Of a stretch of DNA of 64,000 nt, positions 40,789-61,720 are shown piece by piece (the stretch's first letter is position 1; every line of letters begins with the position of its first letter). This DNA comes from a virus. Taxonomy: Duplodnaviria; Caudoviricetes. The notes under the pieces are model-generated. The model was given only the letters and a program-made list of their open reading frames with translations, had not been told where the DNA came from and did no database searches. Location: the IMG/VR virus record IMGVR_UViG_3300010344_001170, positions 1 to 64,000 of that record. One strand, 5' to 3'. Position numbers and translations under genes: made by a program.

Positions 40789-42636
40789 ATGGCAGGATTT
40801 ACCTTGCGTTCGCTCGATAACAAAGGAGCAGGTTTAGTTTCAAGAATACAACGTAATATTCGTTACCTTGCATCCTTAGGGATGAAATGGGATCACGAAC
40901 TTCTTCAGCAATCAAAATCTATAGGTATTGCTGAGGCCCAAATGGATTCAATGTATGGCCTCTATTATCAACAGGGTCAATACATGGGGCTCGACGTTGG
41001 TCAAAAAGAATTCATTGCATTTTATGATAAAGAGTACCCTACACGTAGAGATTTTCTACGTAAATTTGCAATGAATGGAGAAATCGAACACGTTCTTGAA
41101 GTAATCTCTGATGAAACAATTATTTTTGACGATCAAAACTATTTTGCTTACCCAGCAACCAGAGAATTGAAATCTGTTTTAAAACAAGAAAAAGCAAAAG
41201 AAATTATTGACGATTTAAACGAATCTTATAAGAAAATATACTTTGCCTTTGGTTTCAACAAAGGACATGATGCATGGCATTATTGCAAAAAATTCTTAAT
41301 TGACGGTTTCTTAGCATTCGAAGTTATTTATGATGGCGAAGGAACAGATGATGCAAAGAATGTTATTGGTTTTAAAGAATTAGATCCTGTTTCTCTTGAA
41401 CCAGAAATAAGAAAAGATACAGATGGAAAAGAATATCGTGTTTGGATTCAGTATCGTGGTGATTCACAACGTCAAAGAGAATTATTAGATTCCAACTTAA
41501 TTTATATTTCATGGGCACGTGGTAATTTCATTTCAAGACTTTCATATGTTGAACGTTTAGTTCGTTCATTCAATATGTTAAGAACTCTTGAAAATTCACG
41601 TATTATTTGGAACGTATGGAACGCTCAGATGCGTGTTAAAATAATCGTGCCGATTGGAACTCAATCAGAAGCAAAAGCACGTACAAGACTTTCCGAACTT
41701 CGTGGTATGTATAAAGAAGAACTCTCGATTGATGATCAATCAGGAGAAGTTAATTACAATGGACAAGTTCAGTTCCCATTTGCAAAAACATTTGTTATTC
41801 CATCAAGAGATGGACAGCAAACTGAAATTGATGGTTTCCAACCAACTGGTTATGACCTTTCAAATATCGATGCATTAAAGTATTTCTGGCAAAGATTTAT
41901 TATTGAGACAAAGGTTCCATCATCTCGTTTCTCAAATGATCCTGCAAACGGCCCAGTAGGCACCTGGAGTGCCAATGCCGAAGGTATTGCTAGAGAAGAA
42001 TTAAGATTTGAAAACTTCATTACAAGAATTAGATCTATTTTACAAGAAATAGTTTTAAAACCAGCATGGTTACAATTCTGTTTAAAACATCCTGAATTTG
42101 CAAAGGATGAATCTTTAAGAGCTGCAGTTGGTCTTGATTATGTTGATGAAAACTTATTTGCTGAAGCTAAGGAAAGAGACCTTGCTGAAAAGGCTGCAAA
42201 TACAGTTACAACCCTTATGAACATCAAACAACCTACTGTAATGCCAGACGGAAGTCCCGGTGAAGAAAACTATTTTGATGCTAAGTTCTTAGTTGAGAAG
42301 TACATGTCATTAACTGATATGGATATTAAACTCAATGAAAAATATAAGAAAGAACGTAGAGATGAAGTACGTAAACTTGCTGCTGCTTATGCACGTATAG
42401 CTGCTGCTAGAGGAACTGCTGCTGGTGGTGGAATGGAAGGTGGTGCAGGTGGATTTGGTGGTGCTGGAGGATTAGGCGGCGGTGAATTTGGTGGATTAGG
42501 TGGTGCTGAAGCCGGAGCAGGAGAACTTGGTGGTCTTGGAGGTACTGAAGAACTTGGCGGATTAGGTGGAGAAGAAGAAGGTGGCGAATTAGGAGGAGAA
42601 GAAACAGCAACCGAAGAAACTCCACCAGCAAAATAA
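40789..42636 (+). CDS. gp20: portal vertex protein (T4 gp20-like)
   Basis: EIEHVLEVISDE, FLIDG.LAFE, ELDP, VRSFNMLRTLENSRII, IPSRDG, IETKVPSSRF, IAREELRF; Gly/Glu-rich tail. Confidence 0.9.
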   Translation: MAGFTLRSLDNKGAGLVSRIQRNIRYLASLGMKWDHELLQQSKSIGIAEAQMDSMYGLYYQQGQYMGLDVGQKEFIAFYDKEYPTRRDFLRKFAMNGEIEHVLEVISDETIIFDDQNYFAYPATRELKSVLKQEKAKEIIDDLNESYKKIYFAFGFNKGHDAWHYCKKFLIDGFLAFEVIYDGEGTDDAKNVIGFKELDPVSLEPEIRKDTDGKEYRVWIQYRGDSQRQRELLDSNLIYISWARGNFISRLSYVERLVRSFNMLRTLENSRIIWNVWNAQMRVKIIVPIGTQSEAKARTRLSELRGMYKEELSIDDQSGEVNYNGQVQFPFAKTFVIPSRDGQQTEIDGFQPTGYDLSNIDALKYFWQRFIIETKVPSSRFSNDPANGPVGTWSANAEGIAREELRFENFITRIRSILQEIVLKPAWLQFCLKHPEFAKDESLRAAVGLDYVDENLFAEAKERDLAEKAANTVTTLMNIKQPTVMPDGSPGEENYFDAKFLVEKYMSLTDMDIKLNEKYKKERRDEVRKLAAAYARIAAARGTAAGGGMEGGAGGFGGAGGLGGGEFGGLGGAEAGAGELGGLGGTEELGGLGGEEEGGELGGEETATEETPPAK

Positions 42637-45865: not shown

Positions 45866-45873
45866 TATATTTG
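45866..45873 (+). promoter_or_regulatory. host-type promoter
   Basis: TATATTTG, exact TAnnTTTG match. Confidence 0.6.
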
Positions 45874-45893: not shown

Positions 45894-46166
45894 ATGTTAC
45901 TAGTTGCAGAAATTATTTTAACTATCTTCGCCTGGAAAAAAGGCTGGAGATGGTGGGCTTTAGTACCTGTTGCACTCGCATTATTAATTGGTCTCTTTAT
46001 GGGAATGGGTGTTGGCGCATCCGGTGGTGATGTTGACAGTGTCAGAGGTATATCCATTGTTCTCGACGTAATTGCAGTCATAGCTCTTATAGTTATGGTT
46101 ACAAAAGGGCCGAAAACTAACGAAGTAGAAGAAACTAAAGATATTGAGAATGCTCCTCGGAGCTAG
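45894..46166 (+). CDS. small multi-TM membrane protein
   Basis: Three hydrophobic segments. Confidence 0.75.
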   Translation: MLLVAEIILTIFAWKKGWRWWALVPVALALLIGLFMGMGVGASGGDVDSVRGISIVLDVIAVIALIVMVTKGPKTNEVEETKDIENAPRS

Positions 46167-46498
46167 TTATAGAGTAGGTATGTAAGACGCGGGTTCGAAT
46201 CCCGCCACCTCCACAGCGAAACAAGTCGCTAAACGAGTTCCAATTTACTCATTCTTAAATTGGTGGTGGAATCCTGACCATCGTCCAGTTTCTGGACACC
46301 GGTTAGCCCTGGGTTTTCGGAATTGAACCCTTAATCAATTCCAAACGGGGGTGACTTGGCTTTGATTGCATACTGAGGGAAATAATGAACGTCTCAATGA
46401 ACGCAATAAACGGCGAACAGTTTAATGAAATGAAAATGGCTGCTTAAGAAGCACCCACTTTCAGGAGACTTGCCGGCAGCCTTAGTGCCGGCTTTTTT
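46167..46498 (+). ncRNA. ssrA: circularly permuted (two-piece) tmRNA; tag (A)GEQFNEMKMAA
   Basis: T-arm GCGGG-TTCGAAT-CCCGC + CACCTCC-A (46189-46213) precedes GGGGGTG (46347-46353), giving a G3:U70 acceptor stem; TTGCATAC pairs with GTATGTAA; tag frame 46412-46447. Piece ends approximate. Confidence 0.88.
46465..46498 (+). terminator. intrinsic terminator, repeat copy 1
   Basis: GCCGGCA-7nt-TGCCGGC + T6. Confidence 0.8.
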
Positions 46499-46501
46499 AT
46501 T

Positions 46502-47002
46502 ATGAAAAAATTTAATTATTTTTATAAAACTACAAACATCATAAATGAAAAATTTTATTATGGTGTTCATTCTTCTGACAAAGATAACGATAATTATCTA
46601 GGATCAGGAAAATTATTATTAAAGGCTATCAAAAAATATGGCCGTGAAAATTTTAAAAGAGAAATCATCCAATTTTTTGATTCTTTTGACGATGCCTTAA
46701 ATTTTGAAAAACAATTTGTTATCGAAGATATAATAACAAATCCATTATGTTATAATATTAACATTGGAGGTAAAGGAGGGTCAAAAAGAGGAAGACAATC
46801 TCCAATGAAAGGACGAATACATTCTGAAGAAACAAAAACAAAAATTAGTAACTCTGAAAAGGGAAAGTCTAAAAATAAAGGAATAACTCGCTCAATAGAA
46901 ACCCGGCAAAAAATTAGCGAGAATAATGGTATGAAAAACCGAGGTTATCTTGTTTCTGGTTCTCGTAATGGAATGTATAAGAAAAAATACAATATAATTT
47001 AG
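46502..47002 (+). mobile_element. free-standing GIY-YIG homing endonuclease
   Basis: YFYKTTNIINEKFYYG, YLGSG, CYNINIGG, NUMOD3 HSEETKTKIS. Confidence 0.88.
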
Positions 47003-47035
47003 AGACTTGCCCGCAGCCTAAGTGCGGGCTTTTTT
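47002..47035 (+). terminator. intrinsic terminator, repeat copy 2
   Basis: GCCCGCA-7nt-TGCGGGC + T run; 31/34 identical to 46465-46498. Confidence 0.8.
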
Positions 47036-47040
47036 TGTGT

Positions 47041-59821: not shown

Positions 59822-61720
59822 GTGGTTTTTAATTTAAAAAGAGGCCTGAGTCTCTTTTTCTTTTTATGTTGGACGATCTTATTGAAAGCGGAAATCTATT
59901 ACGTTTCTCCAACAGGAAACGACAAAAATCCAGGAACATACAGCAATCCATGGAAGACCATAGCTTATGCCTCATCCCAAGCAACTTCAGGAGATGTAAT
60001 TAATTTAAAACCAGGTACTTTTCTAGAACTTTTTCCAAGCTTAATAAAGCCTAATGTCAACCTTGAGGGGGTAGGCCCTGGATCTATTATTAAATCTAAT
60101 GTAGAAAATGGCCCCACAATCATTCTTATGTCCCAGGAGGGAGCATATGGTAATCAGTATATTGCCAATTTGACTATTGACGGAGATAATCTAAAGGGAT
60201 ATGGGGGAATTCTTGTAAGTGGAAGAAGTAATGTGAGCATTCATCATTGCAATTTTAAAAATTTAAGAAATTATGCTGCAGTATTTAATGCAAGTACTGA
60301 TACTGCAAACTACGAACCTAGATTTTTCTTTGGAATTGATACAGCTACTCACTTAGAGCCAACAGTTTATGCAAATGGAAATAAATTCTTTCAAAACACC
60401 ATTGAAAACTGCGCTATTTTTTATCCAGCAAAAAGAGCATTAGGTGCTTTAATGATTGGGGGTCAAAATGAAATAAACATTTTTGATAATAATATTAGTC
60501 AGGATCAAAGAGAAGTTGGAAATAATGGTTATCCAATAAAACATTATAGAGGTGGATATAATAAGAATCCAAAAATATTCAGAAATACTTTAATAAAAAC
60601 CCCAACAATTTTATCAAGAGATGAATTCTTTTTAGGTTGTGCTATTGAACTTTGGCATACGATCGGTGGTGAAATTTATGAAAACAAATTAAGAGGCGGA
60701 ATGTTTTTTGTTTTTCTTAAGGACATAAAAATTCATCATAATACAATTGGATATGACTCATTAACAGTTGTTCCTAAAACTGGAATTTACGTTTCTGGAG
60801 ATGTGAATAATGTTACTATAAACAACAATTATTTCGAAAATTTAGCATTACAAATAGCATTTAGTCCTTTTGCAGCTACCAAATTAGATAGTGTTTTCAT
60901 ACACACTAATGTCATGTTTAATATTGGTGTTTCCACAGATGAATGGTGGGGATGCGGTATTAGTTTTGCAGGATTAACTTCAGATACAGTTTCTAATCTT
61001 CATGTTGTTGGCAACACAATGATTGCAAATCCCGGAAGTAGAAATACAAGAATCGGGCTTTATTTACCAACTACAGGTTACGCAACGAATATCAATATTC
61101 GAAATAATATAATGTCAGGATTTAGATATGCAACTATTTTTGCTGCAGGTCCTGATCGTACTTTAGATTTGCTTTCTATACAAAACAATATTTTGTGGGA
61201 CAACACATCAGATACAACTAAAACTTACTGTACAAGTGATTCAGCATATTTTACAAATATAAAACCCCCTCTTAGATATGTTGACGAAAATAATTTTTAT
61301 CAAGATCCTATGTTTATTGATGATCAATTTCATTTGTCATCAAGTTCTCCTGCTCTTAATAATGGAATTTATATTCCATGGATAGATAAGGATTTTGAAG
61401 ATAATTTAATTATGAATCCTCCTGATATTGGGGCTCTTGCCTTCAATATTCTGATCATTGATGAGCCAGTTATTGCCGATGAAAATGGCTTATTAATTTA
61501 TCCAGTTCCCGTAACAAATTATTTTACATTAGTTATCAAAGATCCCATGTTTCAACAGGCGAATATGGAGATATACGATTTTGCAGGAAAATTAATTTAT
61601 CGTGAAAAAATAATTGAAAATATTACTCATTTTTCACAAATAAATTGGAAGGCCGGCTTATATATATTAAAAGTACAAACGAGTAGGGAACTATTGGTAT
61701 CTAAAATTATAGTTCTCTGA
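59822..61720 (+). CDS. secreted right-handed beta-helix protein with T9SS type A C-terminal sorting domain
   Basis: Signal peptide; YYVSPTGND.N.GT...PWKTI..A (DUF1565-like); parallel beta-helix; CTD IYPVP..IYDFAGK..GLYILKV..KII. Confidence 0.85.
   Translation: MVFNLKRGLSLFFFLCWTILLKAEIYYVSPTGNDKNPGTYSNPWKTIAYASSQATSGDVINLKPGTFLELFPSLIKPNVNLEGVGPGSIIKSNVENGPTIILMSQEGAYGNQYIANLTIDGDNLKGYGGILVSGRSNVSIHHCNFKNLRNYAAVFNASTDTANYEPRFFFGIDTATHLEPTVYANGNKFFQNTIENCAIFYPAKRALGALMIGGQNEINIFDNNISQDQREVGNNGYPIKHYRGGYNKNPKIFRNTLIKTPTILSRDEFFLGCAIELWHTIGGEIYENKLRGGMFFVFLKDIKIHHNTIGYDSLTVVPKTGIYVSGDVNNVTINNNYFENLALQIAFSPFAATKLDSVFIHTNVMFNIGVSTDEWWGCGISFAGLTSDTVSNLHVVGNTMIANPGSRNTRIGLYLPTTGYATNINIRNNIMSGFRYATIFAAGPDRTLDLLSIQNNILWDNTSDTTKTYCTSDSAYFTNIKPPLRYVDENNFYQDPMFIDDQFHLSSSSPALNNGIYIPWIDKDFEDNLIMNPPDIGALAFNILIIDEPVIADENGLLIYPVPVTNYFTLVIKDPMFQQANMEIYDFAGKLIYREKIIENITHFSQINWKAGLYILKVQTSRELLVSKIIVL

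Follow-up and report, generated by a model that had tools for sequence, protein, structure and literature searches.

The locus and its parts

The DNA analysed here, hereafter the window, comprises the first 64,000 nucleotides of IMG/VR record IMGVR_UViG_3300010344_001170, which derives from a virus of the class Caudoviricetes. On its plus strand, at approximately 46143–46498, lies a gene for transfer-messenger RNA (tmRNA, the product of ssrA) in which the acceptor half precedes the coding half. A first-pass annotation of the window had proposed this swapped order and suggested ARAGORN and a permuted tmRNA model as checks. Both were run, and both return a permuted tmRNA: ARAGORN calls it with the tag GEQFNEMKMAA, and the Rfam model RF04321 (tmRNA_permuted) matches over model positions 1–213 with 56.8 bits (gathering score 47). 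The one-piece model RF00023 gives only a truncated match of 27.3 bits to the 3′ part, and the gene falls outside the one-piece definition.

Every element of the permuted gene that the annotation had listed can be read in the sequence where it was placed. The proposed span of 46167–46498 holds at its 3′ end and fails at its start: the gene begins about 25 nt earlier, with a leader strand at 46143–46149 and a hairpin at 46152–46163. The parts are given below in their order along the window. P2a, P2b, and P2c denote helices between the two pieces, and the pair statistics refer to an alignment of 29 related genes, in which a cell counts as paired if it holds a standard pair.

46143–46149, plus strand: acceptor-piece strand of P2c, AUUGAGA, pairing with UCUCAAU at 46392–46398; five of seven pairs have two-sided changes, and the helix also appears in the minimum-free-energy fold of the precursor.
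46152–46163, plus strand: leader hairpin GCUC CUCG GAGC, between P2c and P2b; relatives have a hairpin at the same place with different stem sequences, and its pair counts are blurred by gaps in the alignment.
46166–46170, plus strand: acceptor-piece strand of P2b, GUUAU, with its partner at 46382–46386; two-sided changes in four of five pairs, 93 per cent of cells paired.
46178–46185, plus strand: 3′ strand of P2a, GTATGTAA (as RNA, GUAUGUAA), with its partner at 46366–46373; two-sided changes in seven of eight pairs, 92.5 per cent of cells paired.
46189–46205, plus strand: T arm GCGGG/TTCGAAT/CCCGC (5-bp stem, loop UUCGAAU); two-sided changes in all five pairs, 97.9 per cent of cells paired.
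46206–46213, plus strand: 3′ strand of the acceptor stem, CACCTCC (as RNA, CACCUCC), with the discriminator A at 46213; 99.5 per cent of cells paired.
46214–46346, plus strand: intervening sequence of 133 nt (15–186 nt among relatives), the removal of which is needed to free both acceptor ends.
46347–46353, plus strand: 5′ strand of the acceptor stem, GGGGGTG, which gives the G3:U70 pair; predicted mature 5′ end of the coding piece and putative ribonuclease P (RNase P) site.
46354–46365, plus strand: D-loop analogue ACUUGGCUUUGA, nearly invariant across the alignment of relatives.
46366–46373, 46382–46386, and 46392–46398, plus strand: coding-piece strands of P2a (TTGCATAC), P2b, and P2c, in the place that pseudoknot 1 (PK1) takes in a one-piece tmRNA.
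46412–46447, plus strand: tag reading frame called by ARAGORN, GGC...GCU GCU UAA, encoding GEQFNEMKMAA; resume codon GGC at 46412, stop codon UAA at 46445–46447.
46441–46453, plus strand: stop-codon hairpin UGCU UAAGA AGCA (stem TGCT at 46441–46444 with AGCA at 46450–46453), with the stop codon in its loop.
46472–46498, plus strand: intrinsic terminator found by a terminator scan, GCCGGC/GCCGGC followed by a U run, at the 3′ end of the coding piece; two-sided changes in all six pairs.

The tag frame with its stop inside a hairpin thus reads at 46412–46453 as the annotation had it. The letters after the discriminator are CAG (from C46214), which bears out the claim that CCA is not encoded. The claimed lack of a T arm downstream of the tag also agrees with the sequence, as no second 3′ strand of the acceptor stem follows the tag: CACCTCCA occurs three times in the 64-kb window and, near the gene, only at 46206.

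Conservation and covariation among relatives

The annotation had further suggested a search for relatives in phage databases. Using the portal protein encoded in the window (40789–42636; phrog_213), we fetched 30 related IMG/VR loci, in 16 of which ARAGORN finds a permuted tmRNA downstream of the portal gene. A tag-context pattern and nhmmer profiles, the latter bringing in members with odd T loops, enlarged the set to 29 distinct permuted genes. All 29, on approximately 40 IMG/VR contigs from many metagenomes, have the acceptor piece upstream of the coding piece.

In the 29-gene alignment, standard pairs make up 92.3 per cent of cells, compared to 39–47 per cent when the 3′ partners are slid by one to three columns, and 34 of the 46 pairs have two-sided changes. 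None of 500 shuffles reaches the observed value on any of five measures. The minimum-free-energy folds of the precursor and of the paired pieces give the same helices. All helices between the pieces covary, that is, P2a, P2b, P2c, and position 5 of the acceptor stem, at which relatives have G-C, A-U, C-G, and, in one case, U-G. The G3:U70 pair, which the annotation had pointed out in this gene, is present in every one of the 29. Covariation extends to the coding region, where the third base of the last alanine codon changes in step with the base that it pairs with in the stop hairpin (U-A, G-C, C-G, A-U). In all relatives, including the portal-fetched ones that were found without reference to the tag, the tag frame is open and ends in (M/I)AA; in the portal-fetched genes it is 10–14 codons long and has its stop in a hairpin. 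Every relative also has A-C followed by something other than CA after the acceptor strand, as do most of the Bacteroidota host genes fetched. The locus is a genuine tmRNA gene in swapped order, and it is under selection.

The T loop deviates from the usual UUCGAAU in some members (L016, L048, L065, and L081, with GGCAGAA, GUCGGAU, and AUCGUAC), and these loops recall those of alphaproteobacterial two-piece tmRNAs.

Two further contacts were considered and rejected. A helix closing around the tag (GUCUC at 46391–46395 with GAGAC at 46466–46470) fits some clades well, but it shows one-sided changes in L019, L013, L015, and L009, and P2c already engages its bases with the leader. The terminator loop CCUUAG could kiss CUGAGG at 46373–46378, but this contact is inconsistent between clades. 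The 3′ tail of the coding piece, AGGAGACUUGCC (46463–46474), is conserved in most relatives. We found no pairing partner for it with covariation support and no counterpart of it 3′ of the tag in one-piece genes of Bacteroidota or phages; it might be a site for a protein or a nuclease.

An architecture without pseudoknots

Only 38 nt lie between P2a and the resume codon, and they are used by P2b and P2c; the 5′ end and the resume codon are 65 nt apart, compared to 84–100 nt in one-piece relatives. Because this short distance is filled by P2b and P2c, PK1 is absent. The stop hairpin is followed by 18 nt and then by the terminator (25 nt past the stop codon), and the acceptor piece begins about 45 nt ahead of the T arm. 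There is thus little space after the tag and before the T arm, and the claim of the first-pass annotation that PK2–PK4 have no room here is borne out. PK1 is missing in addition to the three pseudoknots named in that annotation.

The usual position of PK1 is occupied by the leader hairpin, P2b, and P2c. The last of these ends 13 nt before the resume codon, a spacing close to that after PK1 in Escherichia coli. After maturation, the acceptor piece is predicted to measure about 75 nt and the coding piece about 150 nt, for a total of about 225 nt. If it functions, such a natural minimal tmRNA, consisting of tRNA-like domain, resume context, tag, and stop hairpin, could show which parts are needed for setting the frame and for passage through the ribosome.

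The phage and its host

The window is part of a 79-kb record with a GC content of about 31 per cent and a CheckV completeness of 20 per cent, which puts the whole phage at about 400 kb. The best GenBank matches of the portal protein are to LR756500.1, an uncultured phage of 462 kb (40 per cent identity), and to the Prevotella Lak megaphages (44 per cent). One relative, G012, is a complete 405-kb genome with direct terminal repeats; its portal protein is 65 per cent identical to that of the window, and it carries a tmRNA of the same permuted family. Neither in this complete relative nor in G011 was an SmpB gene found.

The type IX secretion system (T9SS) is linked to Bacteroidota, and the product of the open reading frame (ORF) at 59822–61720 of the window has a T9SS type A sorting domain at its C-terminal end (TIGR04183; 42.3 bits, cut-off 23). 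Together with the Lak-like portal protein, this cargo domain makes a Bacteroidota host, which the first-pass annotation had also proposed, well supported and probable.

Genes for tRNAs with a CUA anticodon (amber suppressors, called tRNA-Pyl by ARAGORN) occur in the related megaphage loci L047, L063, L066, L220, and L221. They fit stop-codon recoding in Lak-like phages; the window contains none.

Proposed production and function

We propose that the gene would be transcribed into a single precursor, which would run from about 46140, or from the promoter of the ORF that begins at 45894, to the terminator at 46498. In the folded precursor, the acceptor stem would enclose the 133-nt intervening sequence. 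Cleavage 5′ of G46347 would fall to host RNase P and trimming after A46213 or C46214 to a host 3′ processing enzyme, whereupon the CCA-adding enzyme of the host would finish the end. Such an end-finishing pathway would exist in the host, since most of the Bacteroidota tmRNA genes that we fetched also lack an encoded CCA. Because the acceptor 3′ end must be free for charging, two separate mature RNAs are expected, and these would be held together by the acceptor stem and by P2a, P2b, and P2c, the helices shown by covariation.

The G3:U70 pair would let host alanyl-tRNA synthetase (AlaRS) charge the RNA, which host SmpB and EF-Tu would deliver to stalled ribosomes; reliance on host SmpB is what would be expected from its absence in the complete relative G012. 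Translation would resume at GGC 46412 and add GEQFNEMKMAA. Such a gene could plausibly benefit the phage by keeping rescue RNA available through a long megaphage infection with many broken mRNAs. The gene also suggests that megaphages provide the ribosome-rescue RNA themselves and depend on the host for SmpB.

Origin of the permutation and alternative explanations

Two-piece tmRNAs were reportedly described from Alphaproteobacteria, a betaproteobacterial group, and some cyanobacteria by Keiler et al. in 2000 and by Sharkady and Williams in 2004. The gene in the window resembles these bacterial genes (RF01849, RF01850, and RF01851) in the order of acceptor piece, intervening sequence, and coding piece, in having a tRNA-like domain made from two RNAs with G3:U70, and in combining a tag frame with fewer pseudoknots. 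It differs from them in that translation would resume on a glycine codon, GGC, rather than on an alanine codon, GCN, and in its MAA tag end, unencoded CCA, and D-loop of Bacteroidota type. It also differs in being phage-borne and in having three intermolecular helices and a leader hairpin instead of PK1.

The covariance models of the known lineages match the window poorly. At E-values up to 10, neither alpha_tmRNA (RF01849; gathering score 50) nor cyano_tmRNA (RF01851; gathering score 70) gives a match on the window; cyanobacterial two-piece genes enter our comparison only through this RF01851 result, since a strictly filtered scan of 61 genomes with the same model yielded no gene above the cut-off. 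The beta_tmRNA model (RF01850) reaches 30 bits against a gathering score of 84 and covers the tRNA domain only (model positions 71–172). On RF04321, genuine alphaproteobacterial and betaproteobacterial two-piece genes score 76–166 bits, compared to 57 bits here.

The resemblances instead point to one-piece genes of Bacteroidota and of huge phages. In bacterial genomes, the tag-context pattern matched 36 one-piece tmRNAs, mostly of Bacteroidota, with tags that end in MAA (e.g. GENNYAMAA). The first-pass annotation had regarded the MKMAA end as atypical, with possible consequences for the degradation of tagged proteins. These 36 tags show that MAA is a normal end: the last three residues equal those of many host tags, and only the residue before them is typical of phages (K, R, or Q, where hosts have A). 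The same pattern matched one-piece tmRNAs of other huge phages; GESQFRMAA and GEYNEYRMAA are among their tags. The phage permuted genes and the Bacteroidota one-piece genes have in common the resume context UAAAC-GGC (the hyphen precedes the resume codon; AAUAAAC-GGC is conserved throughout the permuted family), a tag that starts with G and ends in MAA, and an unencoded CCA, a feature of the majority of the Bacteroidota tmRNA genes that we fetched. They also share the D-loop GGnUUUGA, for which proteobacteria and cyanobacteria have GGUUUCGAC, and basal members of the permuted family have P2a strands GACAGCAG/CUGUUUGGAC, as do Bacteroidota one-piece genes. The latter (from Flavobacteriales, Chitinophagales, Cytophagales, and Marinilabiliales, with P2a GACAGCA/UGUUUGGAC) are 360–400 nt long, with the resume codon 92–99 nt from the 5′ end and space for PK1, whereas the gene in the window has no such space. 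Alphaproteobacterial genes differ in all these characters of Bacteroidota type, with D-loop AGGAUCGAC, an encoded CCA, and resumption at GCA.

Among phages, a full-length tmRNA of the one-piece form stands immediately upstream of the portal gene in Lak-A1, Lak-B1, and Lak-C1 (L224, L226, and L225) and in G081, a phage fragment whose portal protein is 44 per cent identical to that of the window. The Lak genes are not called by ARAGORN and score 47–54 bits on RF00023. Tags of the one-piece genes in Lak-A1/B1/C1, G081, and LR756500.1 include ...FRMAA, GEYNEYRMAA, and GNNAEMRMAA (the Lak-A1 tag reads ...DFRMAA in the sequence, and the last of the three belongs to LR756500.1); tags of the permuted family include GETVNEMRMAA and GEQFNEMKMAA. 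The gene in the window and the tmRNAs of Lak phages, LR756500.1, and other huge phages thus come from phages with 40–44 per cent identical portal proteins and share (R/K)MAA tag ends, an unencoded CCA, and, in Lak and G081, a position next to the portal gene. The Lak and other huge-phage genes are, however, of standard form, 369–413 nt long, with full-length RF00023 matches of 47–95 bits, whereas the gene in the window is permuted, has predicted mature RNAs of only about 225 nt, and lies downstream of the portal gene.

In a phylogenetic tree of 92 alignment columns, the main permuted clade is sister to the phage one-piece genes (94/94), and a branch with support of 97/96 (starred in the tree) parts this clade, on the Bacteroidota side, from the alphaproteobacterial and betaproteobacterial permuted genes. 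A constraint that unites all permuted genes in one clade lowers the log-likelihood by 38 units (approximately unbiased [AU] test; P-value = 0.044).

Taken together, these comparisons make it quite probable that the permutation arose inside Lak-related megaphages of Bacteroidota, from a one-piece gene of Bacteroidota type and independently of the alphaproteobacterial, betaproteobacterial, and cyanobacterial lineages. The first-pass annotation had likewise proposed an independent permutation in a Bacteroidota phage, and this is the best reading now that the lineage models fail and the nearest relatives prove to be one-piece tmRNAs of megaphages and Bacteroidota. Because the trees alone are weak, our case for an independent origin draws mainly on the characters held in common, on the scores of the models, and on the presence of one-piece genes in related phages. 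If this origin is correct, the one-piece sister genes in related phages provide a dated and comparable before-and-after pair for studies of permutation. Two-piece tmRNA is a textbook example of an RNA gene that has undergone circular permutation repeatedly, to which a further origin, this time in phages, would then be added.

For the explanation as a whole, a working ssrA gene in permuted and pseudoknot-free form that came from within the Lak-related megaphage lineage, our confidence is high. We are less sure of the more far-reaching combination of claims, which still seems to us somewhat favoured: that this is the first two-piece tmRNA lineage to have arisen in a virus lineage (Lak-related Bacteroidota megaphages) by a further independent permutation, that it is the most reduced tag-encoding tmRNA (about 75 + 150 nt, no pseudoknot), and that PK1 has been replaced by an intermolecular stack of P2b, leader hairpin, and P2c.

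Several points weigh against this explanation. Processing, CCA addition, charging, and tagging are all deduced from sequence, as is the host. PK1 is important in E. coli tmRNA, and with all four pseudoknots missing, full activity is not guaranteed. Picking the bacterial comparison set by tag pattern favours tags like those of Bacteroidota. The permuted gene lies downstream of the portal gene and the one-piece genes of Lak and G081 lie upstream of it, so that the two loci are neighbours rather than strictly one and the same, and more than a simple tandem duplication followed by trimming would have occurred. Finally, in a tree of the tRNA-like domain alone (69 columns), a single permuted clade is not rejected (AU test; P-value = 0.14) and the phage permuted genes are scattered. 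This last tree has too few columns, is poorly resolved, and gives no significant test.

The outcome of that tree would suit capture of the gene by horizontal transfer from a known two-piece bacterium (of the Alphaproteobacteria, the betaproteobacterial group, or the cyanobacteria), with subsequent divergence and adaptation of the tag to a Bacteroidota host. So would the odd T loops of some members, such as GGCAGAA in L016, which recalls the alphaproteobacterial GGCAGUA, and the existence of phage two-piece tmRNAs of alphaproteobacterial type. Marine T4-like myophages (OM43 phage Melnitz and pelagimyophages) carry such genes, which are read as captured from SAR11-like hosts (PMC9004378). By ARAGORN, 53 of the 133 unique phage tmRNAs in that survey are two-piece (PMC9004378), a count that the first-pass annotation overlooked in calling typical phage tmRNAs one-piece. 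The present family resembles the myophage genes in being a phage-borne permuted ssrA and presumably in using host factors, no SmpB being present in the phage genome checked (G012); unlike them, it is of Bacteroidota/Lak-phage type. The failure of the lineage models, the different D-loop, CCA, and resume codon of alphaproteobacterial genes, the one-piece genes with similar tags in related megaphages, and the 92-column tree all speak against capture, which we regard as unlikely.

In another alternative, the RNA would not tag proteins. It would instead act on host trans-translation, damping or sensing it during infection as a decoy or regulator by which SmpB or AlaRS of the host or stalled ribosomes are titrated. 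The extreme reduction of the gene, with no PK1–PK4, and the lack of a phage SmpB in G012 agree with such a role, and mycobacteriophage DS6A, which has an RNA consisting of the tRNA-like domain only, provides a precedent (PMC4131195, PMC11915505). A decoy, however, would need neither the tag frame nor AAUAAAC-GGC, the (M/I)AA end, or the stop hairpin, all of which are kept, with covariation, in 29 genes. The distance from P2c to the resume codon, near that after PK1 in E. coli, likewise argues against this role, to which we give slightly less credence than to capture.

The 3′ end of ssrA serves many temperate elements as an attachment site, and the phage attachment site (attP) could in principle hold a copy of a host ssrA 3′ end beside a 5′ fragment; this origin, mis-assembly, and a decaying pseudogene can all be dismissed as next to impossible, given the same order of parts in 29 distinct sequences, the absence of an integrase among the neighbouring ORFs scanned, and, above all, the covariation between the halves, which rules out unrelated fragments lying side by side.

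The permuted family appears to have gone undescribed: we found no published description of it in the literature searched, and huge-phage papers mention tmRNAs only in passing. Neither the gene nor its coding piece has a blastn match in 50,697 GenBank phage records. The 2025 tmRNA database takes its viruses from RefSeq only (79 phage sequences) and sorts permuted genes into alphaproteobacterial, betaproteobacterial, and cyanobacterial types; for 29,415 Bacteroidota genomes, it lists 24,380 standard tmRNAs versus 48 stray permuted calls (PMC11915505). The lineage-specific Rfam models miss the permuted family, and ARAGORN misses some of its members as well as the Lak one-piece genes.

Neighbouring elements

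Two features lie immediately upstream of the gene.

45866–45873, plus strand: TATATTTG box of the Bacteroidota −7 type (TAnnTTTG), read from the sequence; candidate promoter for the ORF below and the tmRNA precursor.
45894–46166, plus strand: membrane-protein ORF of 90 codons, whose last eight codons and TAG stop overlap the tmRNA leader (P2c strand, hairpin, and first base of P2b), as they do in the closest relatives.

The ORF has no PHROG or NCBIfam match, and homology upstream of the leader is restricted, among ten relatives compared, to the closest ones (L003–L007). The same stretch of DNA thus serves both as the 3′ end of a membrane-protein ORF and as a structured tmRNA leader. The terminator scan finds no terminator between the ORF and the tmRNA gene. 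Given this and the overlap, the precursor is probably read through from the promoter region of the ORF, which makes the co-transcription of the acceptor piece with the upstream ORF, as claimed by the first-pass annotation, plausible. The motif TAnnTTTG is not enriched in the window (106 occurrences versus 103 expected); we therefore discarded it as proof of host-type promoters and kept it as a weak hint. Relatives that lack the ORF have a similar, AT-rich box about 10 nt upstream of the leader.

The intervening sequence holds an H-type pseudoknot at 46311–46342 (S1, 46311–46315 with 46326–46330; S2, 46319–46325 with 46336–46342). It ends 4 nt before the predicted mature 5′ end, and L036, L056, L065, and L045 have compensatory changes in it. 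Members with a short intervening sequence lack this pseudoknot, which matches no Rfam family.

Four nucleotides past the tmRNA terminator begins an ORF for a GIY-YIG homing endonuclease (46502–47002; phrog_314, E-value 1.8e-41). Behind it, at 47003–47036, the 3′ tail and terminator of the tmRNA recur, with compensatory changes in the stem; next comes a GATATATAAA box, which also follows the terminator in relatives. In L005, which lacks the endonuclease cassette, the counterpart of position 46498 is joined directly to the sequence that follows position 47036 in the window.

A comparison of L006, L014, and L036 with L060 and the window shows a mosaic from about 46428 onwards, which takes in the 3′ half of the tag as well as the sequence downstream of it; the break in homology lies inside the tag frame. 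Near-identical genes differ in that some tags end in ...EMKMAA and others in ...EYRIAA or ...EYRMAA, together with a different tail. This mosaicism suggests recombination or co-conversion beside the homing endonuclease.

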